A stretch of DNA of 64,000 bases from NCBI RefSeq assembly GCF_053078305.1, contig NZ_CP166879.1. One strand, given 5' to 3'. The notes below the pieces were generated by a model that saw only the letters and a list, made by a program, of their open reading frames with translations, did no database searches and had not been told where the DNA came from. The stretch's first letter is position 1. Each line of letters starts with the position of its first letter. Positions 1-15,208 of the stretch are shown here, piece after piece. A program made the translations under genes and the position numbers.

Positions 1-1007
1 GCATCTGGCAGGTTGAACTGCCTGATGTCCCTCGCAAGCAGATACCAACTATTCTGCCCGCCTTACTGGAAGAAGAGCTGAACCAGGATATCGATGAACT
101 GCATTTCGCCCCGTTGAAAATCGACCAGCAACTGGCAACCGTGGCAGTGATTCACCAACAGCATATGCGCAACATTGCGCAGTGGTTGCAGGAAAACGGC
201 ATCACCCGCGCTACCGTCGCGCCAGACTGGATGTCTATTCCTTGTGGATTTATGGCTGGCGATGCGCAACGGGTTATCTGCCGCATCGATGAATGCCGGG
301 GATGGAGCGCCGGGCGGGCGCTGGCTCCGGTCATGTTCCGCGCCCAGCTAAATGAGCAGGATTTACCGCTTTCGCTAACCGTAGTCGGCATTGCACCGGA
401 AGAGCTATCAGTATGGGCTGGCGCAGATGCTGAACGCCTGACCGTTACGGCTCTGCCCGCCATTACCACTTATGGCGAACCGGAAGGGAACCTGCTAACA
501 GGGCCGTGGCAGCCTCGCGTCAGCTACCGAAAACAGTGGGCGCGCTGGCGAGTGATGATTCTGCCGATATTGCTGATTCTGGTTGCGCTGGCAGTGGAAC
601 GGGGCGTGACGTTATGGAGCGTCAGCGAACAGGTGGCGCAAAGCCGCGACCAGGCGGAGAAACAGTTCTTAACGTTGTTCCCGGAGCAGAAGCGGATTGT
701 GAATTTACGCTCTCAGGTGACGATGGCGCTGAAAAAATATCGCCCACAGGCCGACGATACCCGGCTGCTCGCCGAGTTGTCAGCGATAGCCAGCACCCTG
801 AAATCAGCGTCACTTTCCGACATCGAGATGCGTGGTTTCACCTTTGATCAAAAACGCCAGACGCTTCACCTCCAGTTGCGGGCAGCAAACTTTGCCAGTT
901 TCGACAAACTGCGTAGTGCACTGGCAACCGATTATGTTGTGCAACAGGACGCGTTACAGAAAGAGGGTGATGCGGTTTCCGGCGGCGTAACGTTGCGGAG
1001 GAAATAA
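1..1007 (+). CDS. gspL: Type II secretion system protein L (GspL/YghE-like), 5'-partial
   Basis: Reading frame of ORF 114..1007 stays open back to the window start; C-terminal TM segment (WRVMILPILLILVALAV); GspM-like gene starts 2 bp downstream; position next to pheV remnant matches yghE-yghD-pheV synteny. Confidence 0.65.
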   Translation, partial: IWQVELPDVPRKQIPTILPALLEEELNQDIDELHFAPLKIDQQLATVAVIHQQHMRNIAQWLQENGITRATVAPDWMSIPCGFMAGDAQRVICRIDECRGWSAGRALAPVMFRAQLNEQDLPLSLTVVGIAPEELSVWAGADAERLTVTALPAITTYGEPEGNLLTGPWQPRVSYRKQWARWRVMILPILLILVALAVERGVTLWSVSEQVAQSRDQAEKQFLTLFPEQKRIVNLRSQVTMALKKYRPQADDTRLLAELSAIASTLKSASLSDIEMRGFTFDQKRQTLHLQLRAANFASFDKLRSALATDYVVQQDALQKEGDAVSGGVTLRRK

Positions 1008-1008
1008 C

Positions 1009-1545
1009 ATGTTACGCGATAAATTTATTCACTATTTTCAGCAATGGCGTGAACGCCAGTTAAGCCGTGGCGAACACTGGCTGGCACAACACCTGGCGGG
1101 GCGTTCTCCGCGTGAAAAGGGCATGTTACTGGCAGCGGTGGTGTTCCTGTTTAGCGTCGGATATTACGTCCTCATCTGGCAGCCGTTGAGCGAACGGATA
1201 GAACAACAGGAGACGATGTTGCAGCAACTGGTGGCGATGAACACCCGACTGAGGAGCGCCGCGCCGGATATTATTGCAGCGCGAAAATCCGCCACGACAG
1301 CACCTGCGCAGGTATCGCGGGTCATCAGTGACAGTGCTTCCGCGCACTCGGTGGTCATCAAGCGGATAGCCGAGCGTGGGGAGAATATTCAGGTCTGGAT
1401 AGAACCTGTGGTGTTTAATGACCTTCTGAAATGGTTAAACGCACTGGATGAAAAATATGCGCTGCGGGTAACACAAATTGATGTCAGTGCTGCTGAGAAG
1501 ACTGGGATGGTGAATGTGCAGCGGCTGGAGTTTGGACGAGGGTAA
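1009..1545 (+). CDS. gspM: Type II secretion system protein M (GspM/YghD-like)
   Basis: 178-aa ORF with single N-terminal TM helix (LLAAVVFLFSVGYYVLIW), size and position typical of GspM immediately after GspL. Confidence 0.65.
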   Translation: MLRDKFIHYFQQWRERQLSRGEHWLAQHLAGRSPREKGMLLAAVVFLFSVGYYVLIWQPLSERIEQQETMLQQLVAMNTRLRSAAPDIIAARKSATTAPAQVSRVISDSASAHSVVIKRIAERGENIQVWIEPVVFNDLLKWLNALDEKYALRVTQIDVSAAEKTGMVNVQRLEFGRG

Positions 1546-1650
1546 AGTTTCAGGAGATTAATATCAATAAAATTACTCTCGTTAACGTGGCGAGAGTAAT
1601 TCCCCCAGACTTTATAAGCTAATTTTTTTCGTGAAGGTTATTGTCAGATC

Positions 1651-1681
1651 CAAAAGCAAAAACCCGCCTTGTGGGCGGGTT
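1651..1681 (-). terminator. Rho-independent terminator (native pheV terminator)
   Basis: GC stem aacccgcc/ggcgggtt with 4-nt loop; on the minus strand it is followed by a U-rich tract (plus-strand caaaagcaaaa). Lies 12 nt 3' of the tRNA-Phe fragment. Confidence 0.5.
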
Positions 1682-1693
1682 CTTAAGAATTAG

Positions 1694-1715
1694 TGGTGCC
1701 GGACTCGGAATCGAA
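1694..1715 (-). other. 3'-terminal ~22 nt of a tRNA-Phe gene (att-site direct repeat; genomic island boundary)
   Basis: Plus strand TGGTGCCGGACTCGGAATCGAA is the reverse complement of the acceptor/T-arm 3' end of tRNA-Phe (one C short of the canonical sequence as I recall it); similarity stops abruptly after GAATCGAA, so the tRNA body is absent here. Confidence 0.6.
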
Positions 1716-2001
1716 GATTTCATTTATCATATTGATATTGATGTGATTTATTTAGTTTGATTAAAAATGTACCCTCATTTGTACCCGCAGTCCCTTTTGA
1801 TATTGAAAGGGAATCACACTCGGGATCAGGCTGAGAGCACAGAAAGAAAGTGCTTGGCTATTATATCGTTAATTCTGTCAATCAGTTCCAGCCTTTTGAA
1901 AGTGATGTGTGCAGATCCCTTCTTAAAGTATTTAATGATGAACATCTCGTCTTCATAGCGCTCTTTACCCTGAACAGACCGGATATGCTAATCCAGACGA
2001 A

Positions 2002-2667
2002 TTATGATATTTTCCCGGTTGTCGGGAATGGGGTTGCCACTGAAGAGATGCTGCATCCTTTCCTAGTCGGCAACCCGGTCAGTCTGTGGTCCGGTGATAA
2101 GATGAATCCCCACCGGCCCCATCTCACCAGATTGTTGATAATGATTTTACTTCCAAATTTACAGGGAGAGTTGGTTTTATAATTCCAACTCAGTCCCCTG
2201 AAGACGTTAATCACTCCCTGCTCAAACACCTCATCCTTATTCTGGTGCAGTTGTTCAAATGTGCTCATAATGTTCGCTTCACTGATTTCCGGAAAATTAT
2301 TGTACTCCAGTGACCGGTACCATGTATCACGGGTCTGCGCATCCATTAATGACAGCATCCCGGAGCGTTGCATCAGGTCACGCCAGATTTCACGGTCAAG
2401 GTTTCGGGTGATGGCTTTCATTGCCGTTTCAGTTTTCTCCATGAGCCAGCAGCCGCAGCGAAAATCCTGTTTCATCGCCCAGTCCCGGGCGCTTTTACCA
2501 CCAATGCTTTTTGTCAGTACTGAGATTTCAGTCAGTTGCCGGATAAGCGTTTCGGTTTGTTGCAGTGCTGCATTCCGTACCGTCACAACGTGTCGGATAC
2601 TGGTGGAGCAGATAACGTCCGTATGCCCGGTGACCACTTCCGGACGGGAGATTGTGATGTCTGACAT
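2002..2667 (-). CDS. DUF4942-like protein, island-edge gene; C-terminus possibly altered
   Basis: 221-aa ORF; family assignment from memory of the gene usually found beyond yeeW in CP4-44-like modules; last ~30 residues look unrelated (possible frameshift/truncation). Confidence 0.4.
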   Translation of the reverse strand: MSDITISRPEVVTGHTDVICSTSIRHVVTVRNAALQQTETLIRQLTEISVLTKSIGGKSARDWAMKQDFRCGCWLMEKTETAMKAITRNLDREIWRDLMQRSGMLSLMDAQTRDTWYRSLEYNNFPEISEANIMSTFEQLHQNKDEVFEQGVINVFRGLSWNYKTNSPCKFGSKIIINNLVRWGRWGFILSPDHRLTGLPTRKGCSISSVATPFPTTGKIS

Positions 2668-2751
2668 TATCGGTTTCCCTTTTGGTTTATAAACGAAAAC
2701 GCCAGCCGTATTCAGGCTGGCGTCAGGGTAATGAAGCGTGGTGAGTGATAT

Positions 2752-2949
2752 TCACCGGTTCTGGTGCAGAAGCTGCAGATGACGCAGGGTACGGACATCC
2801 TCTCTGGCCTGTTCGATACAGGGCAACAGTGCTGTCGAATCCGTTCTATCCTCATCGTTGTCAAAGATAATTCCCGATTCGCAGTCGATATTGTCCTGTA
2901 GCCACGCAATCAGAATATCCAGTGCGGTTTCCGTGGTTAATGATTTCAT
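2752..2949 (-). CDS. YeeW-like small protein
   Basis: 65-aa product from internal Met (MKSLTTETALDILIAWLQDN...); position downstream of the cbtA region as in CP4-44. Confidence 0.45.
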   Translation of the reverse strand: MKSLTTETALDILIAWLQDNIDCESGIIFDNDEDRTDSTALLPCIEQAREDVRTLRHLQLLHQNR

Positions 2950-2960
2950 GTTGTTCCTGG

Positions 2961-3449
2961 TTACCAGTCGAAAGTGGGCAGGTCCGGCAGACATTCAGCG
3001 CTGACATCCAGATGAATGAGACTGACGCCATAACGTTGGATGAGTGTGACAACCAGACGACGGAACGTTTTTGACAGCCCCAGGCGTTTAAGCCGCAGAA
3101 CCGGATATGACCACGCATCGGTACGTAACAGATATCCGCTACCTGTGAAATGAATCCATTCTGATTCACCGAAGTCACTGGTCTGGTGTGACAGCGAGTA
3201 CAACCAGGCGTTATCCTTTTCCGTGATATGTGCGGTACTGCAGCGTATGCCGGCAAGGGTTGCAAACGGTGGTAGTGTGCAGGTTGACTGTTGGTCGGAT
3301 TCCTCCACCACGCGGAGTGAATAACCGTTTTCAGCGACATTGTTAATCAGTTCAGCGAGATTAACACCATCAATGTCAACGACAATGCGCCCCATGTTCA
3401 GCGCCCGCACGTTAATGCTGTCGGCTTCCAGCGTCAGGGAAAGTTTCAT
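2961..3449 (-). CDS. Conserved hypothetical protein downstream of cbtA
   Basis: 162-aa ORF whose ATG overlaps the cbtA stop in an ATGA arrangement (3446-3449), suggesting translational coupling; preferred over the overlapping alternative-frame ORF 2861..3340. Confidence 0.5.
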   Translation of the reverse strand: MKLSLTLEADSINVRALNMGRIVVDIDGVNLAELINNVAENGYSLRVVEESDQQSTCTLPPFATLAGIRCSTAHITEKDNAWLYSLSHQTSDFGESEWIHFTGSGYLLRTDAWSYPVLRLKRLGLSKTFRRLVVTLIQRYGVSLIHLDVSAECLPDLPTFDW

Positions 3450-3823
3450 CGTTTCGCCTCCGGATGCTTACCCCGGGTAATGTTATTTACCGTTCTGTAA
3501 TTGTCGCGGGTCATCAGGCCGGTCGCCCGGCGAGCCCGGAGGATATCAATACTGTTTATTAACTGAGAGCGGGGACTAGTGCTGAACCGGGGCTGGTCGG
3601 TACGCACCAGCGCGTATTTTTCAACGAGAAAGTTCACCGCGTCACACAGTGAAATGCCTGCCTCAATATGCTGCTCAATCACACGTTCATCGGAGAACGG
3701 TGTGTCATTTAGCGTGAGGCCGTAGTGCTGGTCCAGCAGTCGGGTGAGCAGTGTCTGCCAGATGGTTACTGGAGATGGGCAGCGCGATGCCTCCCGTACG
3801 TGTGTGTCGGGTAATGTGTTCAT
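3446..3823 (-). CDS. cbtA: CbtA-family toxin (YeeV/YkfI/YpjF-like, cytoskeleton-targeting)
   Basis: 125-aa product closely matching remembered YeeV sequence (…WQTLLTRLLDQHYGLTLNDTPFSDERVIEQHIEAGISLCDAVNFLVEKYALVRTDQ…). Confidence 0.85.
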   Translation of the reverse strand: MNTLPDTHVREASRCPSPVTIWQTLLTRLLDQHYGLTLNDTPFSDERVIEQHIEAGISLCDAVNFLVEKYALVRTDQPRFSTSPRSQLINSIDILRARRATGLMTRDNYRTVNNITRGKHPEAKR

Positions 3824-3912
3824 ACTGAAGATTTTCCTGATATGCAGAGATGAAAAATGGGAAAGTGGCGTGGTGAAAACACCAGGCCGGAGCAGAAGGT
3901 TATTCTGATGAT

Positions 3913-4281
3913 TTACTTTTTCGTTTCGGGCGTCGGATAAACAGCCATATAAACGTAACCACAGGAGCCGAGGGTGTCGGCTTCGCAGGTCAGTCCTCTG
4001 GCATACAGCGTGACGGTATGCTGATGGCGGGGATTCAGTTCACCGCTGGTGAGCATGAGTTCCAGTTGTTTCATCAGCAGCGGAAAGGCCTGGTCCAGAT
4101 GGTACGCATCCGCGTCGCTGAACCGGCCTCTGATACCGGCGCGGTCGGCAAGGTAATACAACCGGTTACCCTCCTGCACCAGACGGGCGCCAAAACAGGG
4201 TGTTATAGTGCAGGGCAGCCCCCACCAGGGGCGGTTGTTATAGTCGTCGGGATAATTTGTCTCATGGTGCGTGTCTGACAC
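3913..4281 (-). CDS. cbeA: CbeA-family antitoxin (YeeU/YafW/YfjZ-like)
   Basis: 122-aa product matching remembered YeeU (…RPWWGLPCTITPCFGARLVQEGNRLYYLADRAGI…TLGSCGYVYMAVYPTPETKK); immediately upstream of toxin gene. Confidence 0.85.
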   Translation of the reverse strand: MSDTHHETNYPDDYNNRPWWGLPCTITPCFGARLVQEGNRLYYLADRAGIRGRFSDADAYHLDQAFPLLMKQLELMLTSGELNPRHQHTVTLYARGLTCEADTLGSCGYVYMAVYPTPETKK

Positions 4282-4443
4282 GATAAAGTCCTCACAGAAA
4301 ATCGGTTAAGAAGGGGTTAACGATGACAGGTCAGCCGGTGTGGAGACCGGCTTCGGTGAAGATGTATTCATTGATGAGAAGGGCCTCATCCACAGCGGCG
4401 TCTGAGGTCATCTGGTCGTACTCGTTTTCCGGGTGACGGAACA

Positions 4444-4665
4444 TTAGTTCAGAGTGACGCTCATCAGCCGGACATACGGGCCAAAACTGTCCTTACGGCG
4501 TTCAGCAAACACGGCCAGCACACCGGGAATATCCTGCACTTCACGACCGGTATACGCCTCAGCACTGCCGTGCCAGCGGTACTTACCGGTGCAGAACGGA
4601 AATAGACGGGATGCAGGATGCTGTTGGTGAATACGCATGGCTTCACCACGGGTGATAATTTTCAT
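4444..4665 (-). CDS. yeeT: YeeT-like DUF987 protein
   Basis: 73-aa product MKIITRGEAMRIHQQHP…RLMSVTLN, near-identical to remembered YeeT; conserved position upstream of cbeA. Confidence 0.8.
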   Translation of the reverse strand: MKIITRGEAMRIHQQHPASRLFPFCTGKYRWHGSAEAYTGREVQDIPGVLAVFAERRKDSFGPYVRLMSVTLN

Positions 4666-4733
4666 AATGGGATACCTCTGAAGACAGAAGATAAAAGTGA
4701 AAACAGGTGTGATGTGATTGTGGCGGTGACGGG

Positions 4734-5225
4734 TTAAAGCAGACCATGTTCGGCAAAGGAGAAAACCTGGCTGCCACCGACTATCAGATGGTCCGGCACC
4801 CGGATATCCACCAGGCCCAGTGCCTGTACCAGACGTTCGGTGATAAGGCGGTCTGCCTTACTGGGGGTGACTTCACCGGACGGGTGATTGTGCGCCAGCA
4901 CCACGGCAGCGGCATTGTGGTACAGGGCGCGTTTAATCACCTCCCGGGGATGGACTTCTGTGCGGTTGATGGTGCCTGTGAAGAGGGTTTCACCGGCAAT
5001 CAACTGATTCTGGTTGTTCAGATACAGCACCCGGAATTCTTCACGCTCCAGTCCAGCCATGTTCAGAATCAGCCATTCCCGTGCCGCTCGGGTGGAGGTG
5101 AAGGCCACGCCGGGTTCATGAAGATGGCGGTCCAGGGTTTTCAGGGCCCGCAGAATGAGACTGCGCTCGCCGGGCGTCATCTCTCCGGGCAGAAAGGAAA
5201 GCTGCTGCATTGTCCCTGCCTCCAT
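4734..5225 (-). CDS. yeeS: RadC-like JAB-domain protein (YeeS/YkfG/YfjY-like)
   Basis: JAMM/JAB motif region (…AAVVLAHNHPSGEVTPSKADRLITERL…); start may be the second Met at 5210. Confidence 0.8.
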   Translation of the reverse strand: MEAGTMQQLSFLPGEMTPGERSLILRALKTLDRHLHEPGVAFTSTRAAREWLILNMAGLEREEFRVLYLNNQNQLIAGETLFTGTINRTEVHPREVIKRALYHNAAAVVLAHNHPSGEVTPSKADRLITERLVQALGLVDIRVPDHLIVGGSQVFSFAEHGLL

Positions 5226-5699
5226 TCAGTCAATGATGCGCATAATGGCGCTGCATTCCGGATGCTGCAGGGCGTAATCCCGCAGCCGGTAATAATGGAC
5301 CGTCATGGCATAACACTCTGTACGACAGGCATGATGACTGTACGTCATCAGACAGGCAGCAATGCCGGCAGCTTCCGGACTCATTTCAGCGCGGTTACCG
5401 TTCATGGCATTGAACAGTACCCATGTTTCGTCATCATCGTCATCCGGTTCAGGGGCCATAAATGCCCCGCCGTTGTTCAGGGTGTACAGATTCCAGATGC
5501 CCCCGCAGTAGTCTTCGCACAAACGGTCCATCCAGCCGAAGACACGGGGCTCCAGGGTCACCCACTGTGGAATGAGGCTAAAATGCTGCGGCCAGAAGCT
5601 GATGCGCTGTTCATCAGGGACTATGGTGGCAACCAGTTGTTGCAGGCCAGTCTCCGGTGCACAGGCTGAAGAGGTGGTGTTCTGAGACAATGTTTTCAT
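5226..5699 (-). CDS. Antirestriction protein, ArdB/KlcA family (YfjX/YafX-like)
   Basis: ~157-aa product from internal Met (MKTLSQN…); acidic stretch PEPDDDDDETW; stop abuts radC-like start; conserved position in CP4-type modules. Confidence 0.75.
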   Translation of the reverse strand: MKTLSQNTTSSACAPETGLQQLVATIVPDEQRISFWPQHFSLIPQWVTLEPRVFGWMDRLCEDYCGGIWNLYTLNNGGAFMAPEPDDDDDETWVLFNAMNGNRAEMSPEAAGIAACLMTYSHHACRTECYAMTVHYYRLRDYALQHPECSAIMRIID

Positions 5700-5792
5700 G
5701 TGTGAAATCCTTGTAATGTGAATAAATGAGAGGAAATAAAGGCCGGGGGCTGACAACATCACGTTCATCACTGACCGTGAGACCCGGCAATA

Positions 5793-6038
5793 TCAGGGAT
5801 GAATGATATTCGGCTGAAATTCCGGACAGCCGTACGCGTAACCGTTCCGGTCACAGACGGATGGCCAGATGCCATTGCCTGTACTCAGTCTGCACAGACT
5901 GAGTTCTCCGGGACGGTAAAGCAGACGGGTACACCAGGCGCACAGGTCATCATCAGAAATGGAACGACATCCCGGCAGCGCCTCCGGGGCGTCGGGTGAT
6001 ACGGGTGCCTGAATCACGCCTTCAGGGATATGTTTCAT
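5793..6038 (-). CDS. Small DUF905-type protein (YkfF-like)
   Basis: 81-aa product from Met at 6038; its ATG overlaps the upstream stop as TGATG (6036-6040); position between DUF932 and antirestriction genes as in CP4-6/CP4-57. Confidence 0.6.
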   Translation of the reverse strand: MKHIPEGVIQAPVSPDAPEALPGCRSISDDDLCAWCTRLLYRPGELSLCRLSTGNGIWPSVCDRNGYAYGCPEFQPNIIHP

Positions 6039-6859
6039 CAGCGCATGCTCTCCAGCAGCGTTTCTGCCATCACCCACAATGCGCGGTTGAGCTTAATATC
6101 GGTGTCGATGCTGTGAATGGCACGGGTGTGGATACGTTTTCCTTTTGCACTGCGACCGGAAATCCCGCCTTTCAGCATATTCTCCTGGATGGTCTGATAA
6201 GCACTCCACAGGTCCTTACCGTAATCCTCCCGGCGTCGCGGTGTCAGAATGTCGGCGGTAGTGATGGGCTGATGTTCGTCACCATAACGGTAAGTCAGTG
6301 CCGCCTGTGCCAGCGCCTGGCGTGCCGGTGGCGGCAGGACCAGCGACTGCATGGCATCACGCTTCTCCTCTATCCGGTCAAACACGCCCACCACCTCGTA
6401 AGCCCCTTCAATGACTCTGTCCACCACATTTCCCCGGTGCGGAACACGCACTTCCCCCAGAGACTGACCACAGACGCATCCGTTCTGGCAGACGAACCTG
6501 AAGTAACCCGGCAGCATCTGGTAGCTGGAGGTACCGTCATGGGAGTTGAGCAGAATAATTTCAGGGACATGTTCTCCGTTTATCTCTCCGGCCCGCCGCA
6601 GACGCAGCATGTGTTTTGTGTATCCCCGGCGGCCCGGGTCGCGCACACGGGTCTGGCAGGCGAAGAATGGCTGAAAGCCTTCCCGCTGCAGGCTTTCCAG
6701 CACAGTGATGGTGGGGATGTACGTATAGTTCTGGCTTCGGGACGTGTGTTTCTCTTCCCCGAAAATCCCCGGCACATGGTGCATCAGCTCTTCATATGTC
6801 AGCGGACGGTCACGGCGTATCTGGTTTGCAGCATAACCAAAACGACTTGCTAATCGCAT
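6038..6859 (-). CDS. DUF932 protein (YafZ/YfjQ-like)
   Basis: 273-aa ORF, the size characteristic of YafZ/YfjQ; uninterrupted; strong coding appearance. Confidence 0.75.
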   Translation of the reverse strand: MRLASRFGYAANQIRRDRPLTYEELMHHVPGIFGEEKHTSRSQNYTYIPTITVLESLQREGFQPFFACQTRVRDPGRRGYTKHMLRLRRAGEINGEHVPEIILLNSHDGTSSYQMLPGYFRFVCQNGCVCGQSLGEVRVPHRGNVVDRVIEGAYEVVGVFDRIEEKRDAMQSLVLPPPARQALAQAALTYRYGDEHQPITTADILTPRRREDYGKDLWSAYQTIQENMLKGGISGRSAKGKRIHTRAIHSIDTDIKLNRALWVMAETLLESMR

Positions 6860-6904
6860 AATTTGCTCCTTATCGGTGGTTAAGATTTACTGGTGTAATA
6901 AATG

Positions 6905-6936
6905 AAAAAAGCCGCGTCTCCCGGAGAAGACGCGGC
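6905..6936 (-). terminator. Rho-independent terminator
   Basis: Stem gccgcgtct/agacgcggc with 8-nt loop; on the minus strand followed by UUUUUU (plus-strand aaaaaa at 6905-6910). Confidence 0.5.
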
Positions 6937-7269
6937 CTGATGGACGAAATTAATGAGGTTTATTGTCTGAGAAGCCCTCCACTGGCGAGCCACGCATTAA
7001 GCTGTTTTCCGGCATCAGCTTCAGAGTTCCGGCAGCGTCAGCGTCGCTGACCTTCCGCGTTGCGGATAACCCGACGGAAATGCATTCCCGGGTCATCCTG
7101 GATAAACACATTGCGGTAAGCGGTTATGACAGCAACCGCCTGCCCGTATGAGAAAGATCCTTCAGCCAGGACATACTCTGTGTGTAACCCGGCATATCTG
7201 GTTTCTCCTGATAAATAGCCTCTGCCATACGTTGTGGCAGAGGCTGAAGCATGAAACTGACTTCAGGGA

Positions 7270-7725
7270 TCAGTTAACATTTTTTCCGGAAACGGTAATC
7301 AGCAGTGGATGGTAGTCCTGGGGATTGAAAACCGATAACGGCAGACTGACACGATGGCCGTTACTTTCTTCAGTTGCTTTAATGATTTCGGTTGTGGCGA
7401 CATTTTCCACGCACTCCGTTTCCAGAAATGCGTCTGTGGTTCGCGTGGCATTACTGTCACCAAAAGCTTCCGTTTCCATTTTTCTGGTCACCAGCGTCTG
7501 ACCATATTTGTCTTTGAGTTGCAGAGTGATGGTGAGGGGGCCAAATCCTTCATCGTTTCCGCCATTATCCAGCCGGAACTGGTAAGCACAAATATTTCCC
7601 GGGAGCCATATTGTATCTGTATTGCGTATACTGATGTAACGTTGATCCTGTGCCCGGAGTGGGGCAGACCACGTTAACCCCAGAATGAAGGCGGTAATCA
7701 TGCAGGTTTTGAACAGGTGAATCAT
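7270..7725 (-). CDS. Secreted/periplasmic protein of unknown function
   Basis: 151-aa ORF with N-terminal signal peptide (MITAFILGLTWSAPLRAQ); no recognisable catalytic motif. Confidence 0.55.
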   Translation of the reverse strand: MIHLFKTCMITAFILGLTWSAPLRAQDQRYISIRNTDTIWLPGNICAYQFRLDNGGNDEGFGPLTITLQLKDKYGQTLVTRKMETEAFGDSNATRTTDAFLETECVENVATTEIIKATEESNGHRVSLPLSVFNPQDYHPLLITVSGKNVN

Positions 7726-7800
7726 GGTATTTACCTCTCTGAGTCATGACGATGACACTGACAAATCAGGTGATAAAGCGTAAAAGGCGCAGAATAGCCG

Positions 7801-10323
7801 TTATGCCGGTAACTCCGGGGGTAATGCTTCTTCCAGTCGGTTAACCATATTGCCGAGATGGGATGCATCATATTCCATGACGGGGCGTTGCCTGATGATA
7901 CTGACCACCAGTGGTTTGATTAACATATTGGTCGCGGCCCGTTGTTGTATACCGGCGGCGAAAATGATCTCCAGAGCATTCTGATCGATAACACGGGCCA
8001 GATTCGCGTTCAGATTTTCAATCTCATGTCCGGTCAGCAGGAAACTGCCGGCAAGCCATGTCACCTGCTCCTGAATCATTGCCAGAATTTTGACGCGATC
8101 TTCTTCAACCAGCGCTCCGGCAATTTTTCCTGATACAGCGGAGGCAATCATTCCCCCCAGAACACCGCCAACCACACGCCCTGTCAGTGCACCAAATGGT
8201 CCCAGTGGACTGAACAATATCCCGCCCGCCACTGACCCGACAGCACCACCTGCCACACCGGAAGATGCCACGGCAAGATTCCTGATGAACTGCGCACCGG
8301 AGATCCGTCCCCGCAACATTTTGATCATGTCAGGGCCGGTTGTGACAGCTACCAGTGCCAGAGATGTCACCAGCGTACCCTTCATCACTTTGTTCAGGGC
8401 ACTGATATTTCCTGCACCGGTCCCCTTCTGAAGAGCCAGTCGGACAGTCGGGCTGGCAGTCGAAAAATCAATGTGCTTCAGCATACCCTGAACAACAGTG
8501 AGCCGGTGAAGTTGCTGGGTTGTGACGTAGACAGCCAGTGTGCGGGTGAAGGTTTTTCCTGCCTGGACAGCAGCTGTCTGCAGGGCAGCATCGCGATCGC
8601 CGGTGCTGAGCCAGAAGATCGATGCCGTCAGGGCAAAACTGATCCCTCCGGCCGCCAGACTGACAACCGACCCCTCGGCAATATCATAAGTGACCGATTC
8701 GATGGTCCCGAACCGGGTGATATTACGGGCCTGAGTATAAGTCAGATGTCCCCGACGAATCAGCCGGGACGCTTCTGCGGGATCGGTTACACCGGGTACT
8801 TTACCTTCGCGGATCTTATTCCTCATGGTTTCAACAGCGCCGGCATACTGATCACGGGGGACTTCCAGTTGCATGGGGCCATTATTTCCCATGTAACGAT
8901 ACTGTCCGTTTTGTCCGTCGAATGCCGCACCGACGCTACGGGCTGCAGTTGAACAATATTTCGTCTGGATTTCTGTTCCGCTGACCAGTCTGTCTGCTCC
9001 ATTTCTGGCATTATTATCACCGAGGATCCGTGCGTTTTTCAGACGGACTCTGTCGACAATATGGTTTCCCCGTTCAGCGGCAAACCCATGTCCCTGCCCT
9101 CCGGAAGCAAACATTTTCTCATTTGTACTCCAGGTTTCCGGCAGTTTCATGAGAATCAGACCATTCGCCGTTGCATCGGAAATAAAGCTGTTGTAAGGGC
9201 GTTCATAAATTTCCTGACACAGTGTTTCTGTTTCGCGACAAAGAGAGGAGCAGTACCATTCCGGATCCGGCTTATGATTTTCCGGGGCATGATGTACTTC
9301 TGTCAGCCCGCAGGAGGCACAGATACGAAGCTCATCCACGTGATGGAATGATACAAAACGGCGACCTTCTGAAAAGGGATACCAGTCACCGCCGTCCAGG
9401 CAACGATCGAGAAAATCGTCATTCGCTTCCGGTGATAAATTCAGGCGGTTCCGGAAGAGCGTTTTCAGTTCATCAGGTGTGAATGACAGGTTCTCTTTCA
9501 ACTGTTCGTTAAACCCTGCCATGTTTCTTTCATACCAGGCATTGTTCAGTAACCAGTTTCCGTCTGCCAGTTCAAATTCCCTCAGCTCTCCCCGGGAAAT
9601 CCGTTGAGAAATGAGCGTCAGCCAGATGCGCTCCGTCAGTGAGTCAGGAAGGCTGTAATCGTTTTGCAAACTGGTCAGCCACGATTTACTGTTGAGCACC
9701 GGTTGTTCTTCCAGTGTCTGGCTGATGGCACAGGTCAGTTTTTTCAGCGCCTGGATCTGGCTGGCCGCCCATAGCAGCGTCACTAATGCAGCCAGCCAGT
9801 ACAACAACCCGCCCCACCACATCAGTGACGGTGAAATATCGTACTGTAACGCGATCAATGGTGCGCATGCAGAACACGCCATAAGGAAAAAGGCAGTATA
9901 AAAACAGCAGTAATACCCGTTAATTTCCTTGCTGATATCTTCTGGTGTGATCCCGTTCTGCTGAATGTTTTTGATCTGCAGGGGAACAGCCAGCAGACCA
10001 CCGGCGAGAGCAGTGGTCAGAATAAATTTCACAGAGTCAAAGGTGTGAGCCTCCAGCGCGATATGTTTACCATCAAGTCCCCACATGAAGCTGATGATCA
10101 TTCCGGCAATCGTCAGAAATACGCCTGCCAGCCAGCGAATATGGAACAACCGGGTTATGCGTTCGGTGATATAGCCAGCCAGTAAGGCCGGGCCGAACAG
10201 ACACAGCAATATGAGCCCTGCCAGCGCAGAAGCCGTGCTGATTAATGCTCTGAACAAAAGGCGAAGAATGGCAAATCCTGCGATCAGCAGGATCAGCGCG
10301 CCGACTATCTGTAACATAGTCAC
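7801..10323 (-). CDS. Large inner-membrane protein, YeeR-like
   Basis: 840-aa ORF immediately downstream of flu (position of yeeR in CP4-44); multiple N-terminal TM helices, Cys/His cluster (CASCGLTEVHH…CSSLC), Gly-rich hydrophobic C-terminal segment. Confidence 0.65.
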   Translation of the reverse strand: MTMLQIVGALILLIAGFAILRLLFRALISTASALAGLILLCLFGPALLAGYITERITRLFHIRWLAGVFLTIAGMIISFMWGLDGKHIALEAHTFDSVKFILTTALAGGLLAVPLQIKNIQQNGITPEDISKEINGYYCCFYTAFFLMACSACAPLIALQYDISPSLMWWGGLLYWLAALVTLLWAASQIQALKKLTCAISQTLEEQPVLNSKSWLTSLQNDYSLPDSLTERIWLTLISQRISRGELREFELADGNWLLNNAWYERNMAGFNEQLKENLSFTPDELKTLFRNRLNLSPEANDDFLDRCLDGGDWYPFSEGRRFVSFHHVDELRICASCGLTEVHHAPENHKPDPEWYCSSLCRETETLCQEIYERPYNSFISDATANGLILMKLPETWSTNEKMFASGGQGHGFAAERGNHIVDRVRLKNARILGDNNARNGADRLVSGTEIQTKYCSTAARSVGAAFDGQNGQYRYMGNNGPMQLEVPRDQYAGAVETMRNKIREGKVPGVTDPAEASRLIRRGHLTYTQARNITRFGTIESVTYDIAEGSVVSLAAGGISFALTASIFWLSTGDRDAALQTAAVQAGKTFTRTLAVYVTTQQLHRLTVVQGMLKHIDFSTASPTVRLALQKGTGAGNISALNKVMKGTLVTSLALVAVTTGPDMIKMLRGRISGAQFIRNLAVASSGVAGGAVGSVAGGILFSPLGPFGALTGRVVGGVLGGMIASAVSGKIAGALVEEDRVKILAMIQEQVTWLAGSFLLTGHEIENLNANLARVIDQNALEIIFAAGIQQRAATNMLIKPLVVSIIRQRPVMEYDASHLGNMVNRLEEALPPELPA

Positions 10324-10393
10324 TCCGTGATGAATATCATGTTATTGTTAATGCCAGCGAATGTGGCGTTGAATATCCGTTGCGCCGGTCCGG

Positions 10394-10418
10394 GTCCCGG
10401 TCATGATGACCGGGACCA
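10394..10418. repeat. Near-perfect 25-bp palindrome between flu and the YeeR-like gene
   Basis: ggtcccggtcatgatgaccgggacc reads the same on both strands except the central base. Confidence 0.8.
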
Positions 10419-10437
10419 CAGAGAGGCGATGGTTCTG

Positions 10438-13400
10438 TCAGAAGGTCACATTCAGCGTGGCCTGACCGTTATAGCCTTCAGCGCTGCTGCCGCTGACGCT
10501 GTGGACATAACCTGCCTGAACGCCCAGGGTGATGTTTTCCCGGACACGGGCTTCCAGTCCGGCCTGCAGGTCCAGTGACGTACCATTCTGTGACGGTGAG
10601 AACGTCATGTTACTGCCGGCTGCGGCTGTACCCATGCTCATGTCCCCCCGGGAGCTGAAGGTGCGGATAACAGAAGGCTGTACCCACCAGTTCACCGGCA
10701 GTTCACGCACACTGTGTTTGGCACTGCCGCGCAGGGTGTCACGGGATGAGGTGCCTTTACCAAAGTTCATATCGTTGTGGCTGCCCAGACGGAAGCCGGC
10801 ACGCACATGTTGTGCACTGCCATGCCCGAACTTCACATAACCGGCGTTGTCCTGACCGTCATCCAGGGAGAGTCCCTGCCAGGTGTACTGCAGTTGCGGC
10901 TCCAGCATCAGATTGTCAGTGATACTGAAGGGCAGACCGGTTTCCAGTGAACCCAGCCAGCCCCGGCCCCGGACGCGGAAGTCGTTATTGTCCGATGAGG
11001 CTTTCATGCTGTGGCGGGTTCCCTGGGCCACAATGTCAGCCCACAGGCCGGAGGCGTTGTGTATCAGATTCAGGTATCCGCCCAGGCTGCCGGCATCATC
11101 CCGGACCGTGCCGGCACGGGAGCCGTCATCATCCTTAACATCAACGGAAGAATGGCCTGCAGCACCATACACCCCTGTCGTCAGAGACATACCGGCAACC
11201 TCTGTTCTCATCAGGTCACCCTCCAGACGGACGAAGCCATAGCTGCCGCTGCTTTCCGGCGTGGCCCCACGGACAATACCGCCGTTGTTATCGTGACCGA
11301 GATGGCCGCCCTGAATGCTGAGACGGACGCTGTTATTTTCACCGTTTACACCGGTCTGATGGCTGCGGGAGCCTGCCAGAATCCGGTCATAGTCCATTGC
11401 CTGTGTCAGCATGGAGGCATACAGGGGGACTTCTGCACGATAAGCATTTTCACTGCGCAGATACCAGCTCTCATCACTGTCCCGGTTGAGGGAGTAGTTA
11501 AAGGCCCCGGCCTGCAGCCTGTTCCCCTGGACAAAGGCCCCTTCCTCCGTGGTGGCACCGTTAATGGCTTCCACCACCTGAATACCCTTACCGCTGGTCG
11601 CCAGCCCCGACGCACTGTTGCCGGCGTTCACCATGTTCAGGATGGTTTTTCCGGTTGCCCTGCCGCCGTCAATGACCAGTCTGTCAGCATTGTTCTGTGC
11701 CATATCCGGGCGTACACGCAGGCTGATGGTGCCATTCTGCCCGTTCAGGTTTTTCACTTTCAGGGTTGCCGGTACGAACTTCCCTGTGCGGGTGGAGGTG
11801 AAATGAATCTGTCCGGCATGGCTGAGGTCATCCACCACCGACTGCACCGTGGCGTTATCAGGGATATTCCAGGTGGCACCGGAGGCGAGAGTGACATTCG
11901 TGGGGTCAATGGCACCGTTCAGCACAGTGCTGCCGGTCAGCTTCAGGGCTGTACCGCGCTGAGCAATGACATCCGTGGTGACGGTACTGTCGTTCAGCGT
12001 CAGCGTGCCTTCATTCAGGTTGACGGCTTTCTGGGTGAGTGTGGTGTTGCTGACAGTGAGTGTGCCACTTCCTGATTTTTCCACGCTGCCGTTACCGGTG
12101 AGAGAGCCTCCCTGCAGGAGTGCATCGCCTTCACGGATGGTCAGGGTATCGTTGTTCACCGTCTTCCCGGAAAGGGTAAGTATGGCGCCGTTATTCAGCG
12201 TGGTGGTGCCCGCCAGTGTGCCGCCCCTGGCGGTGAACAGTCCGCCATTTACCGTGGTATCCGTGGCCGTATCACCGGCGTTCAGCGTGAATGAACTGCC
12301 TTTTTCCAGCATCAGGGCATCCGCCTGACCGCCTCCGATACTGAATGCCTTTCCGTCGCTCCGTGTACCACTGACAGCGGCACCGGAATCGGCCAGCAGT
12401 ACACCGCCATTTCCCATGGATACGGTGGTGGCGGTACCACCGTTGCGGACATCCAGCGTTCCGCCATCATCCACACGGGTATTAGTGGCTGTGTGTCCGC
12501 TCAGCACATCCAGACGTCCGCCATTTTCCAGTACGACATTATCAGCTTTACCCTCCACAACAGAGAATGCTCCCAGGCGGTTTGTACCGGTAACGGTTGC
12601 AGCCGTACTGGTAACCAGTGCACCGCCCGTGTTCTGGGTGACATCAGACGCTTTACCGCCGGCATTCACCTGCAGCTTTCCTTTCTGGTTGATGGTGGTA
12701 TGCGCGGCAGTTCCTCCTTCCTTAATCACCTGCCAGCCATCACGGTTTATCAGCGTCTCTGTTGCCGTGCCACCGTTGTGTACATACTGGTTACCCCCCT
12801 CCAGCCGGGTGTTATGTGCCTCTCCGTGTACCGTCTGGTCACCACCGGCGTAAATGAGGGTGTCCCGTGCCATCCCCGAAGACCAGATAACCTGCCGGCC
12901 ATTTTTGTTGATGGTGGTGGATTCAGCCGTCCCTCCGACCATCTGACCGCTGGACACATTTTCAGACTCCGGACCACCTTCTGCACCGGTGTTGACGATG
13001 GTTCCGGTTGCCAGTCCGCCATGTTTTATGGTCTGGTAACCATCCAGGTTAATAATTGTACCGGCAGCTTTCCCTCCCCCGTGTACCCACTGCTCACCTC
13101 TGTTATCCAGCGTGGTGTTCACCGCCAGTCCGTTAAGGCTCTGCCCTCCGCCATCACGAATAACCGTATCACTGGCAGTTCCTCCTGCCTGCACAATCTG
13201 ACGACCATTTGCGGTGACAGTGGTGTTTCTGCCTGTGCCACCCGCGTTTATCCATTGCCCGCCGGTGTTTTCGTCACTGTCCGGCCCCAGCTCAAGCCCG
13301 GTACTGACAGTCACGCCATCAGCTGTTCCGGATACAAACTGGTTGTCATGGTTTACCAGTGTTCCGCCATTCACTGTTTCACCCGGGTGCACAACGATGT

Positions 13401-13566
13401 CAGCAGCCAGCACCGGGAGTGACGTGACCGCGGCAAGAGACAGTGCAACCGCCACACCGCCACGTTTACCCCGTGCGCGGGCCAGTTCGGAGGCAACCAC
13501 GAAAGCGCCCGTAATGTGATTCCATACCAGCCTGTAGCAGGTATTCAGATGTCGTTTCATCAGCAT
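10438..13566 (-). CDS. flu: Antigen 43 (Ag43) self-associating autotransporter adhesin
   Basis: 1042-aa product matching remembered Ag43 along its length: extended signal peptide MKRHLNTCYRLVWNH…, passenger repeats, C-terminal beta-barrel ending …GYNGQATLNVTF. True start probably Met at 13560. Confidence 0.95.
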   Translation of the reverse strand: MLMKRHLNTCYRLVWNHITGAFVVASELARARGKRGGVAVALSLAAVTSLPVLAADIVVHPGETVNGGTLVNHDNQFVSGTADGVTVSTGLELGPDSDENTGGQWINAGGTGRNTTVTANGRQIVQAGGTASDTVIRDGGGQSLNGLAVNTTLDNRGEQWVHGGGKAAGTIINLDGYQTIKHGGLATGTIVNTGAEGGPESENVSSGQMVGGTAESTTINKNGRQVIWSSGMARDTLIYAGGDQTVHGEAHNTRLEGGNQYVHNGGTATETLINRDGWQVIKEGGTAAHTTINQKGKLQVNAGGKASDVTQNTGGALVTSTAATVTGTNRLGAFSVVEGKADNVVLENGGRLDVLSGHTATNTRVDDGGTLDVRNGGTATTVSMGNGGVLLADSGAAVSGTRSDGKAFSIGGGQADALMLEKGSSFTLNAGDTATDTTVNGGLFTARGGTLAGTTTLNNGAILTLSGKTVNNDTLTIREGDALLQGGSLTGNGSVEKSGSGTLTVSNTTLTQKAVNLNEGTLTLNDSTVTTDVIAQRGTALKLTGSTVLNGAIDPTNVTLASGATWNIPDNATVQSVVDDLSHAGQIHFTSTRTGKFVPATLKVKNLNGQNGTISLRVRPDMAQNNADRLVIDGGRATGKTILNMVNAGNSASGLATSGKGIQVVEAINGATTEEGAFVQGNRLQAGAFNYSLNRDSDESWYLRSENAYRAEVPLYASMLTQAMDYDRILAGSRSHQTGVNGENNSVRLSIQGGHLGHDNNGGIVRGATPESSGSYGFVRLEGDLMRTEVAGMSLTTGVYGAAGHSSVDVKDDDGSRAGTVRDDAGSLGGYLNLIHNASGLWADIVAQGTRHSMKASSDNNDFRVRGRGWLGSLETGLPFSITDNLMLEPQLQYTWQGLSLDDGQDNAGYVKFGHGSAQHVRAGFRLGSHNDMNFGKGTSSRDTLRGSAKHSVRELPVNWWVQPSVIRTFSSRGDMSMGTAAAGSNMTFSPSQNGTSLDLQAGLEARVRENITLGVQAGYVHSVSGSSAEGYNGQATLNVTF

Positions 13567-13751
13567 TTCCTTAATCAGAGTGAGAGTGAATAAAAAAGCC
13601 GGTATCCACAGATGTGGATACCGGCAGGTAAAGGGTTACAGTGCCAGAGGTCCGGCTGACGGAAGTTTCTGACGTGTGGCTCTGTTGTTCCCTGAATGTC
13701 TTTCTGTACGTATCTGTGCATGTTACTGACAAAGGTTATTATTAGCTTATC

Positions 13752-13787
13752 GATCGATATAAACGATCGATAAAATAGGTATCGATC
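13752..13787 (-). promoter_or_regulatory. agn43 phase-variation switch: three GATC Dam sites in the OxyR operator region
   Basis: GATC at 13752, 13765 and 13784 within tatcGATCgatataaacGATCgataaaataggtatcGATCg, ~190-220 bp upstream of the flu start codon. Confidence 0.8.
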
Positions 13788-13892
13788 GTTTTATTCTATT
13801 GTTTGGCTATTGCACGGACAAGAGAGACAGTAACGAAAACAGCGCTTTTGTGAGCAGACTCAGAGTCAGGGAGGGCATCAGTCACGACAGGT

Positions 13893-14765
13893 TCAGAAGA
13901 AAATCCAGTTCCATACCGCACGGGCAACAGAGACCACCGTGTTACGAACAGCGCGCAGGGCCGTACGGACAACAGAGGCAACACAGACGCTCTCCGCTGT
14001 GTCAAATATCCGGTCCACCGCACCGGTAAACTGTTCACGGGCCTGAGACCGGACAGATTCCGTGCGCAGCTCGTCCTGCAGTCGGGTCATCAGGGGACTG
14101 GCGGCATGGTCGGGAAGCGCTGTCATGAGCGCACTGACCAGCGTATCCAGTTCCCAGCCGGTGCGGGCCGATACGGCCACAACCGGATGTACGGGCCGGA
14201 ACAGACGGAATACCGCCTCCGTTTTTTCGCGAATATTCTGTGCCTGTGCAGGAGAAGGCTGAATACCGGCCATATCCCATTCATGGCAGGGCTCCGTTTT
14301 GTCGGCCTGCGTCACCACAAACAGCACCTGCTGATGTCCCCGGTGCAGGATGTGTCGCCAGAAATACTCATCCACAGACAGGGCCCGGTCATCGGCTTTA
14401 ATCAGCCACAGCACCAGGTCAAGTTCAGGCAGAATGTCACGGTACAGGGCCTCATACTCTGCATCCCTGTCCCGGCTCTCGCCCACCCCGGGCAGGTCAG
14501 TGATAACCATGCTGTGACCGTGGCCACTCAGACGGAAGCGCCGTACTTCCCGGGTGCCGGCGTGAACATCACTGACCGGGGTGACCTCCCCCTGAAACAG
14601 TGCATTACAGAGTGAGGATTTACCGGCCCCGCTTTTACCCATAATGCCAATCACGGGTTCGTGACGGGTGAGTTTGCGCAGATGTTCCAGGATGTGACGG
14701 GAAAGTGAGTAAGGCAGGGAGGAGAGCGGTTTTTCAATTGCCTCAATGGCATCAGACGGATTCAT
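13893..14765 (-). CDS. yeeP: YeeP/YkfA/YfjP-family GTPase
   Basis: P-loop GIMGKSGAGKSSL plus G-motifs (DLPGVG, TQADK); ~290 aa from Met at 14765 (ORF extends to 14804); upstream of flu as in CP4-44. Confidence 0.8.
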   Translation of the reverse strand: MNPSDAIEAIEKPLSSLPYSLSRHILEHLRKLTRHEPVIGIMGKSGAGKSSLCNALFQGEVTPVSDVHAGTREVRRFRLSGHGHSMVITDLPGVGESRDRDAEYEALYRDILPELDLVLWLIKADDRALSVDEYFWRHILHRGHQQVLFVVTQADKTEPCHEWDMAGIQPSPAQAQNIREKTEAVFRLFRPVHPVVAVSARTGWELDTLVSALMTALPDHAASPLMTRLQDELRTESVRSQAREQFTGAVDRIFDTAESVCVASVVRTALRAVRNTVVSVARAVWNWIFF

Positions 14766-15208
14766 ACATGTATTCCCGGTGAAAAAAGACAAAACCCCGC
14801 GCACCGGAAAGGTGGCGGGGGATCCACGGAGATAATATCTGTCTGAAATTGTTTTGAATCGATGGGATTGTTGCGTATTAACATGAAGGAGATCAGGACT
14901 TATCCGTTACTGGGTGATCTCCTTCCATGAAAATACGCAGTTATTGTTAAACAGCAGGCTGATTTCTCCGTAAAGGGGAAAATATTTATCGGCTGCATGA
15001 TTATCAGGTGTGTCTGTGTTTACTGCTGTGAGTATTTTTCAGTGTATTGTGGGGGAGATGTCAGTGGGAGATATTAAATTTACGTTTATAATTATCTTAC
15101 TTCTTCTGTGTGTTTTTTATAAGAGTGCACACGTAATGATATCTGTTGATACCATGTGGTTAAGTGTTTCCCTTCCGGGTCATGCGTACTTGCAAAATGG
15201 CATCTGAA

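Follow-up and report, generated by a model that had tools for sequence, protein, structure and literature searches.

At one end of the 64-kb window (the whole stretch of DNA analysed here, 64,000 nucleotides) lies a run of small genes which a sequence-only reading took for a complete, intact CbtA/CbeA toxin–antitoxin and CP4-type accessory module at an island edge. The question raised by this locus is whether it is such a module, and how much of it is still whole. The block very probably represents the conserved accessory module at the distal end of a large (>62 kb) E. coli island of CP4/P4 type integrated at pheV, with an intact nine-gene core and a decayed periphery. The decayed genes are DUF4942, DUF905 and DUF8835. 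Blocks of this kind are the standard set at the distal ends of E. coli islands inserted at tRNA genes, and are ordinary and previously described.

Gene content and island boundary

A same-strand gene run was present on the minus strand at 2002–6859, with family matches far beyond chance (Pfam). The order was DUF932, orf81, ArdB antirestriction, RadC-like JAB, DUF987, a DUF8835 relic, CbeA, CbtA, DUF5983 and DUF957, followed 3′ by a terminator-like hairpin and a dead DUF4942 gene (Table 1). Except for the relic, all genes of the run, DUF932 to DUF957, were full length relative to PGAP-annotated homologs, and alignments of these nine core genes were full-length, stop-free and at 85–100% identity.

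Table 1. Features mapped in and around the accessory block.
Feature	Coordinates	Strand	Evidence
Island boundary, displaced tRNA-Phe (pheV) 3′ end, 22 nt, one G missing	1693..1715	-	exact 17-mer match 1699-1715; K-12 pheV-yghD alignment
DUF4942 (methyltransferase-like) pseudogene	1826..2667	-	profile coverage, homolog alignment
Terminator-like hairpin, 10 pairs then T run, after DUF957	2698..2724	-	consensus scan only
DUF957-type small protein, 65 aa, intact	2752..2949	-	PGAP homolog
DUF5983 protein, 162 aa, intact	2961..3449	-	Pfam, homolog alignment
cbtA (yeeV-family) toxin, 125 aa, intact	3446..3823	-	Pfam, homolog alignment
cbeA (yeeU-family) type IV antitoxin, 122 aa	3913..4281	-	Pfam, homolog alignment, PDB matches
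37-codon relic ORF in yeeT-cbeA spacer, DUF8835 3′ end	4331..4444	-	homolog comparison
DUF987 (YeeT), 73 aa, intact	4444..4665	-	Pfam, homolog alignment
RadC-like JAB/JAMM protein (YeeS family), 158 aa by homologs' start	4734..5210	-	Pfam, homolog alignment, motif
ArdB/KlcA-type antirestriction protein, 157 aa by homologs' start	5226..5699	-	Pfam, PDB matches
orf81, conserved 81-aa Cys-rich protein	5793..6038	-	homolog conservation
DUF932 protein (YfjQ/YafZ family), 273 aa, intact	6038..6859	-	Pfam, homolog alignment
Strong terminator-like hairpin, 13 pairs then T run, between DUF905 relic and DUF932	6909..6938	-	consensus scan
True DUF905 (UPF0401: YkfF/YubL) homolog, upstream of DUF932, outside 2002-6859	7038..7169	-	Pfam PF06006

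Pfam profiles were matched by CbtA (CbtA_toxin, PF06755, positions 1–112 of 112, E 2.8e-61), CbeA (CbeA_antitoxin, PF06154, 1–100 of 101, E 5.5e-54), the RadC-like protein (RadC, PF04002, 2–121 of 121, E 1.5e-44), the antirestriction protein (Antirestrict, PF03230, 1–92 of 92, E 3.1e-37), DUF932 (E 4.8e-52), DUF987 (E 5.4e-40) and the DUF5983 protein (DUF5983_N, E 4.4e-29; DUF5983, E 7.5e-21). The DUF957 protein had no match in the Pfam copy used and was identical over 65/65 residues to WP_044186375.1, a PGAP "DUF957 domain-containing protein". No module protein matched NCBIfam. The RadC-like protein carried HNHPSGxxxPSxxD, and the stretch AHNHPSGEVTPSKAD in its translation agrees with the metal-binding motif H-x-H-P-S-x...-S-x-x-D. 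The longest ORF of the antirestriction gene reached 5771, giving 181 aa. Two plus-strand ORFs, at 4746–5669 (307 aa) and 5996–6853 (285 aa), are probably antisense shadows of RadC/ArdB and DUF932, respectively, because the Pfam matches of those genes lie on the minus strand.

The genes had been described as tightly spaced with overlapping start and stop codons, which was true of three junctions only, TGATG at DUF932/orf81, TAATG at DUF987/relic ORF and ATGA at cbtA/DUF5983, whereas the remaining junctions had spacers of 11–162 nt. The label "YeeW-like", given earlier to a separate gene, fits DUF5983, which that reading had entered as a "downstream ORF".

The island-edge position was confirmed. 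Window positions 1540–1715 were collinear with the K-12 yghD–pheV spacer as far as the last 22 nt of pheV, where homology ended, and the pheV terminator hairpin lay just outside this boundary (1657–1685). The gene run ended (DUF4942, 1826) 110 nt from the island/chromosome junction. The displaced copy of the tRNA 3′ end, which borders chromosomal DNA at the distal junction, is the direct repeat expected of a tRNA-integrated CP4/P4-type island. No tRNA gene was found in the 64-kb window, and the proximal island end, where an integrase beside an intact pheV would be expected, lies beyond it.

The hairpin following DUF957, placed by a consensus scan, probably marks the end of an operon-like run. 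Neither DUF932 nor cbeA was preceded by a convincing sigma-70 promoter in a simple scan; it returned 3 sites, fewer than the 5.7 of shuffled controls, and therefore no promoter is claimed. An Rfam E-value scan of 1–14000 found no RNA element inside the module. Apart from one insignificant match over the pheV remnant, the same scan gave just the IsrC/IS102 sRNA, which lies upstream of Ag43.

The toxin–antitoxin pair and related islands

The earlier reading of the block as a known CP4-type module that combines a type IV toxin–antitoxin pair (CbeA/CbtA) with an antirestriction gene was borne out by Pfam and homolog alignment. The genes cbeA and cbtA lay in this order on the same strand, separated by an 89-nt spacer as in K-12 (PMC5371832), and cbeA had a GTG start and a ribosome-binding site as in K-12. 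Both proteins were 85% identical to their K-12 counterparts and free of internal stops (CbtA, 125 vs 124 aa; CbeA, 122 aa in both). CbeA also matched the solved YeeU structures PDB 2INW (E 3e-72) and 2H28 (E 1.9e-71). In CbtA, F65, the determinant of FtsZ interaction (PMC5624674), was kept and was invariant in the toxin alignment. The window protein had R14/C15 where K-12 has S14/R15, so that the MreB determinant R15 was absent. The R15C change abolishes MreB interaction in K-12 CbtA, yet YpjF carries C15 and binds MreB (PMC5624674). MreB targeting by the window CbtA is thus uncertain, while Cys15, which is shared by YpjF and YkfI, is no bar to membership of the CbtA family.

The earlier view that the module is likely functional is plausible for the toxin–antitoxin pair. 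The contrast drawn earlier with "decayed K-12 counterparts" did not hold for the toxin–antitoxin genes, as the K-12 pairs cbtA/cbeA, ykfI/yafW and ypjF/yfjZ are all intact in sequence, and experiments have shown that the toxins are toxic and are neutralised by the antitoxins (PMC5624674; PMC5371832). Decay in CP4-44 of K-12 concerns yeeP and yeeW, the latter being a 64-aa N-terminal remnant of the DUF5983 gene.

CP4-44 carries yeeS-yeeT-cbeA-cbtA-yeeW in the order and orientation of the window, with the same cbeA GTG start and a similar cbeA–cbtA spacer (~89 nt). Identities amounted to 146 residues for YeeS (148 aa in K-12), 72/73 for YeeT, 104/122 for CbeA and 105/125 for CbtA. Differences were that DUF957 is only a ~170-nt remnant in CP4-44, that DUF932 and antirestriction genes are not annotated in the stretch examined, and that its yeeT–cbeA spacer is 73 nt, reflecting a larger deletion, versus 162 nt in the window. 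The modules of CP4-6 (yafZ...ykfF-yafX-ykfG-ykfH-yafW-ykfI) and CP4-57 (yfjQ...ypjI-yfjX/lfgA-yfjY/lfgB-ypjJ-yfjZ-ypjF) were paralogous, with the same family content but only 54–79% protein identity, shorter toxins and antitoxins, and 20-nt spacers. In both, DUF905 is directly upstream of the antirestriction gene, an arrangement that the earlier reading had assumed here as well. In the window, orf81 occupies that place, and the DUF905 homolog precedes DUF932.

Outside K-12, the same series appears in a published table for the Shigella flexneri SRL island (orf48–orf56) and the EDL933 LEE island (L0007–L0010), comprising YfjQ, YfjX/KlcA, YeeS, YeeT, YeeU, YeeV, YeeW/L0008, DUF957/L0009 and DUF4942/L0010 (PMC6980539). 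This likeness is one of published gene lists rather than sequence, and DUF4942 is listed as a protein in the SRL island but is a pseudogene in the window. A presence/absence table reports module genes in tRNA-Phe (pheV/pheU) and selC islands of LEE-negative STEC, namely YeeP, YeeR, YeeS, YeeT, YeeU, YeeV, YafZ, YkfF, KlcA, Ag43 and DUF957 (PMC6174562). The antirestriction protein matched E. coli CFT073 ArdB (PDB 2WJ9, E 1e-110), which has been solved and is active in vivo, over all 157 residues, and also KlcA (PDB 2KMG, E 6.5e-20). No sequence-level difference from CFT073 ArdB/KlcA was found.

Of 5426 complete E. coli genomes, 3333 had the identical gene order, and the block, whose median copy number per genome is three, is among the commonest E. 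coli accessory modules. None of the complete RefSeq E. coli genomes covered it at 99% identity or more, the best full-length match reaching 97.7% across 96% of the 5.8-kb query. Only two records had their best place at 99% identity or above. The nearest relatives by exact-protein look-up were GCA_001902675.1 (99.1%) and GCA_001902735.1 (98.8%). Module genes, lesions included, were identical or nearly so in two assemblies besides that of the window.

Decayed genes and orf81

The view of the module as complete and intact stood for the nine core genes, which had no inactivating lesion, but not for the rest, as exact alignment revealed inactivating mutations in DUF4942 inside the range and in DUF905 outside it. 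The DUF4942 gene lacked one nucleotide between 2107 and 2106, and TAG codons interrupted its frame at 2065–2063 and 1990–1988, ahead of its natural stop at 1828–1826. Instead of an uninterrupted frame of ~280 aa, only positions 1–101 of the 190-position profile were covered, and the 221-aa ORF at 2002–2667 is the frameshifted front of the pseudogene. The same lesions occurred in FEX669 (PGAP "frameshifted; internal stop") and L015/L017.

Completeness also failed at DUF8835, most of which has been deleted from the yeeT–cbeA spacer. The full gene ("antitoxin of toxin-antitoxin stability system") encodes 227 aa, and roughly a third of E. coli genomes carry it at full length; the window keeps its last 37 codons, 552 nt having been lost. 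The common yeeT–cbeA spacer is a scar left by deletion of DUF8835. In L015/L017/L018 the 37-aa relic is annotated as a gene.

The gene labelled DUF905 within the range is orf81, the assignment being rejected because PF06006 had no match at 5793–6038. In the real DUF905 homolog, a TGA at 7040–7038 cut the gene to 43 codons, limiting the match to profile positions 3–43 of 70, and the frame had no ATG start. Directly upstream of the ArdB gene and coupled in translation to DUF932, orf81 had no Pfam, NCBIfam, PHROG or PADLOC match, and none in Pfam even at E ≤ 1. Its 184 homologs across Enterobacterales, from Escherichia to Yersinia and Serratia, conserved C33, C36, C49 and C71; the family is in no curated collection, and PGAP calls its members in other strains "hypothetical protein". 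An AlphaFold2 model from a 24-sequence alignment (mean pLDDT 54) was too poor for a fold search. There is a slim chance that orf81 represents an uncharacterised factor, which may bind zinc, with a role in the establishment or anti-defence of enterobacterial islands.

Proposed function and significance

By analogy with characterised K-12 homologs, CbtA would bind FtsZ and MreB and so block division and elongation, and CbeA, as a type IV antitoxin, would neutralise it through the cytoskeletal targets rather than by binding the toxin. Loss of the pair or silencing of the antitoxin would then be penalised, favouring retention of this island end, although an "addiction" role for chromosomal CbtA/CbeA pairs is not firmly established; deletions in K-12 alter oxidative-stress resistance and biofilm (PMC5371832). 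Judging from its homologs, ArdB would act in vivo as an inhibitor of type I restriction. Along with DUF932/RadC and the methyltransferase-like DUF4942, it resembles an establishment/anti-defence set that may derive from a transferable ancestor; plasmid leading regions co-cluster toxin–antitoxin, antirestriction and methyltransferase genes (PMC11541004).

The breakage of three neighbouring genes counts against this reading, in that selection over the whole block is relaxed. The block could be a decaying, silent relic whose ORFs persist only through recent island arrival or exchange. Consistent with this are the lesions in or beside it, namely the frameshift and two stops of DUF4942, the nonsense codon of DUF905 and the loss of 552 nt from DUF8835, as well as the lack of a promoter-like site upstream in the scan. 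The module was also ~100% identical to that of L015 while the chromosomal flank differed by 2.8%, in keeping with recent horizontal sharing that left little time for decay. However, nine consecutive genes were full length without stops. Compared with the FDAARGOS_944 copy, which is ~93% identical, the proteins were 85–98% identical and the core genes free of indels, which argues for purifying selection. The K-12 homologs reside in cryptic elements just as old and are demonstrably active (PMC5624674; PMC5371832). A silent relic is considered improbable.

Still less probable, and indeed very unlikely, is that CbtA/CbeA, possibly with DUF5983 and DUF957, serve mainly as a host anti-phage abortive-infection or stress-response module. 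Some type IV systems, e.g., AbiE, reportedly act by abortive infection (PMC3985639), and toxin deletion in K-12 lowers oxidative-stress resistance (PMC5371832). The ATGA overlap couples DUF5983 translationally to cbtA, which suggests a functional link. Yet no block protein matched any PADLOC defence model, so that a catalogued defence system is unsupported; the neighbours are anti-restriction genes, which serve a mobile element and not its host; and no phage phenotype was reported in the literature consulted.

For the conserved distal accessory module, the significance lies mostly in annotation, the toxin–antitoxin pair and ArdB having characterised homologs. Corrections for annotators are the true extent and pseudogene status of DUF4942, the mislabelled "DUF905" and the origin of the common yeeT–cbeA spacer in a DUF8835 deletion. 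Beyond these, orf81, DUF5983, DUF957 and DUF8835 are conserved, little-explored genes that are physically coupled to a toxin–antitoxin pair and an antirestriction gene.

Gene content and integrity of the module

Every gene of the CP4-type module was carried on the minus strand. Global alignments against the annotated homologs of strains FEX669 and FDAARGOS_944 and of the three K-12 modules revealed that nine genes (DUF932, orf81, ArdB, RadC, DUF987, CbeA, CbtA, DUF5983, and DUF957) were stop-free and full length. The match of the antirestriction protein to the ArdB structure 2WJ9 (E 1e-110) spanned the entire protein; KlcA was matched at E 6.5e-20, and RadC carried the JAMM motif. Searches of NCBIfam and PADLOC gave zero matches among the module proteins. 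The sequence-only reading had called the module complete and intact; this held for the nine genes, but not for DUF4942, a pseudogene, for DUF905, mislabelled in that reading and in fact truncated, or for DUF8835, deleted to a relic. On the alignments, the module is intact at its core and decayed at its periphery.

Features of the module and the island (E, Pfam E-value)
Feature	Position in window	Strand	Remarks
DUF4942-type 221-aa ORF	2002-2667	-	profile positions 1-101 of 190 only
DUF957-type 65-aa ORF	2752-2949	-	identical to PGAP "DUF957 domain-containing protein"
DUF5983	2961-3449	-	Pfam match
CbtA toxin	3446-3823	-	E 2.8e-61
CbeA antitoxin	3913-4281	-	E 5.5e-54
DUF987/YeeT	4444-4665	-	E 5.4e-40
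RadC-like JAB protein	4734-5210	-	E 1.5e-44
Antirestriction protein PF03230	5226-5699	-	E 3.1e-37; start as in homologs
orf81	5793-6038	-	81 aa; no family match
DUF932	6038-6859	-	273 aa; E 4.8e-52; first in transcription order
True DUF905 homolog	7038-7169	-	upstream of DUF932
IrmA	7270-7725	-	CP4-44-like upstream neighbour
YeeR-like membrane protein	7801-10323	-	840 aa (K-12 YeeR 510 aa)
Ag43	10438-13566	-	CP4-44-like upstream neighbour
IsrC/IS102 sRNA	13585-13789	-	Rfam 252.9 bits
YeeP-like GTPase	13893-14804	-	intact
Type I secretion set (OEP, ABC, HlyD)	38976-43703	+
Ig-like repeat protein	43988-48832	+	1614 aa; after type I secretion set
Trimeric autotransporter adhesin	49228-50970	+
NERD-UvrD helicase	59320-61107	+

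Compared with an intact 280-aa homolog, DUF4942 lacked 1 nt between 2107 and 2106 (codon 188) and had two in-frame TAG codons (2065-2063 and 1990-1988). The left boundary of 2002 proposed earlier was merely the end of the frameshift product, the frame continuing to its natural stop at 1828-1826. FEX669 carried the same allele, flagged by PGAP as "frameshifted; internal stop", and the lesions recurred in two further assemblies, which excludes sequencing error; from its sequence, the gene is a pseudogene.

The ORF previously read as DUF905 was orf81, a four-Cys ORF that did not match PF06006 even at E ≤ 1. Its family comprised 184 database proteins from Escherichia coli, Citrobacter, Klebsiella, Salmonella, Yersinia, Serratia, and Mixta, with identity down to 52% and C33, C36, C49, and C71 conserved, and was included in none of the curated families. 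Sequence comparison marks orf81 as a genuine conserved gene with no assigned function; its AlphaFold2 model was of low confidence (pLDDT 54). Many E. coli copies had frameshifts. A premature TGA (7040-7038) left the true DUF905 homolog, which lay outside the range of the earlier reading, with only 43 codons, matching positions 3-43 of the 70-position profile; its frame had no ATG start. A 6-nt duplication (GACGCT) adjoined this TGA, and an AC-repeat slip had put the ATG out of frame; in FEX669, this region had a 119-nt internal deletion instead.

The 162-nt yeeT-cbeA spacer (4282-4443) included a 37-codon ORF (4331-4444, minus strand) representing the 3' end of a gene whose full-length form, of 227 aa, was found in strain GmF046. 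This gene was labelled "DUF8835 domain-containing" in GmF046 and "antitoxin of toxin-antitoxin stability system" elsewhere, and had undergone an exact deletion of 552 nt in the window. Among 5426 complete E. coli genomes, 1938 had the full gene and 3458 the deleted form. Full-length homologs (50–60% identity) on alphaproteobacterial plasmids adjoined ParB-N and strawberry-notch genes.

The overlapping start and stop codons described earlier were present at three junctions, TGATG (DUF932/orf81), ATGA (cbtA/DUF5983), and TAATG (coupling the relic ORF to the DUF987 stop); the remaining gaps were 93, 15, 68, 162, 89, 11, and 84 nt. Terminator-like hairpins found by a consensus scan before DUF932 (6909-6938) and after DUF957 (2698-2724) suggest that DUF932 to DUF957 may form one transcription unit, with DUF4942 separate.

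The CbtA/CbeA pair and its K-12 counterparts

The K-12 counterparts had been described as decayed, which holds only in part: in CP4-44, yeeW is the 64-aa front of DUF5983, DUF957 is a ∼170-nt remnant and yeeP is decayed; DUF932 and the antirestriction gene were not annotated in the CP4-44 stretch read. In contrast, all three K-12 toxin-antitoxin pairs were intact, and they are experimentally toxic and neutralisable (PMC5624674; PMC5371832).

CbtA and CbeA each had 85% identity to their K-12 counterparts; cbeA shared its GTG start and RBS with the K-12 gene, and CbeA matched the solved YeeU structures 2INW and 2H28. By analogy with K-12 work, CbtA would block FtsZ and MreB, and CbeA would counteract it at the level of these targets. 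F65 was conserved; CbtA, YpjF, and YkfI no longer bind FtsZ when this residue is substituted (PMC5624674). Around codon 15 (3779-3781), the window and its closest strains had R14/C15 versus S14/R15 in K-12. R15C abolishes MreB binding of K-12 CbtA, whereas YpjF, with a natural C15, retains it (PMC5624674); MreB targeting by this allele is thus not predictable, and the toxin might act on FtsZ only.

Island setting, distribution, and meaning

The genes gspL/gspM (yghE/yghD; 114-1545) were 98.4% identical to those of another E. coli strain. Window 1540-1715 was collinear with the K-12 yghD-pheV spacer, including the pheV terminator hairpin, and ended with the last 22 nt of pheV, minus one G, beyond which homology stopped. 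This pheV 3' remnant and the end of K-12 homology at 1715 bear out the placement of the module at the island edge. No tRNA gene was found in the 64-kb window, so the island reaches past 64 kb and the module sits at its integrase-distal end. Neighbours like those upstream of the module in CP4-44 were mirrored at 7270-14804 (minus strand), and the remaining cargo (16000-61200, plus strand) also included DUF3987, an MFS transporter, and an IS66 transposase.

An exact-protein look-up led to GCA_001902675.1 (L015) and GCA_001902735.1, 99.1 and 98.8% identical to window 4-9823 (ungapped), with the same organisation and lesions. Within 2000-7000, L015 differed by 0–1 nt per module gene (9 in ArdB), versus 43 of ∼1500 positions (2.8%) in the gspL/gspM flank (4-1545). 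This contrast suggests that the island was shared horizontally or that the flank recombined.

The module is already known and very common in E. coli: of 5426 complete genomes, 3333 contained the 5.8-kb block (coverage ≥80%), and the number of matching places in a genome had a median of three. The sequence-only reading had likewise called the module known. The Shigella SRL island has the same tabulated series (YfjQ, YfjX/KlcA, YeeS, YeeT, YeeU, YeeV, YeeW, DUF957, and DUF4942), with reference to L0007-L0010 from the LEE island of EDL933 (PMC6980539), and the module is also reported from STEC pheV/pheU/selC islands (PMC6174562). Overall, the observation of the sequence-only reading was confirmed in part and its interpretation supported in part. 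Toxin-antitoxin, antirestriction, and methyltransferase genes co-cluster in plasmid leading regions (PMC11541004), and this likeness supports the view that the block may be an establishment and retention set.
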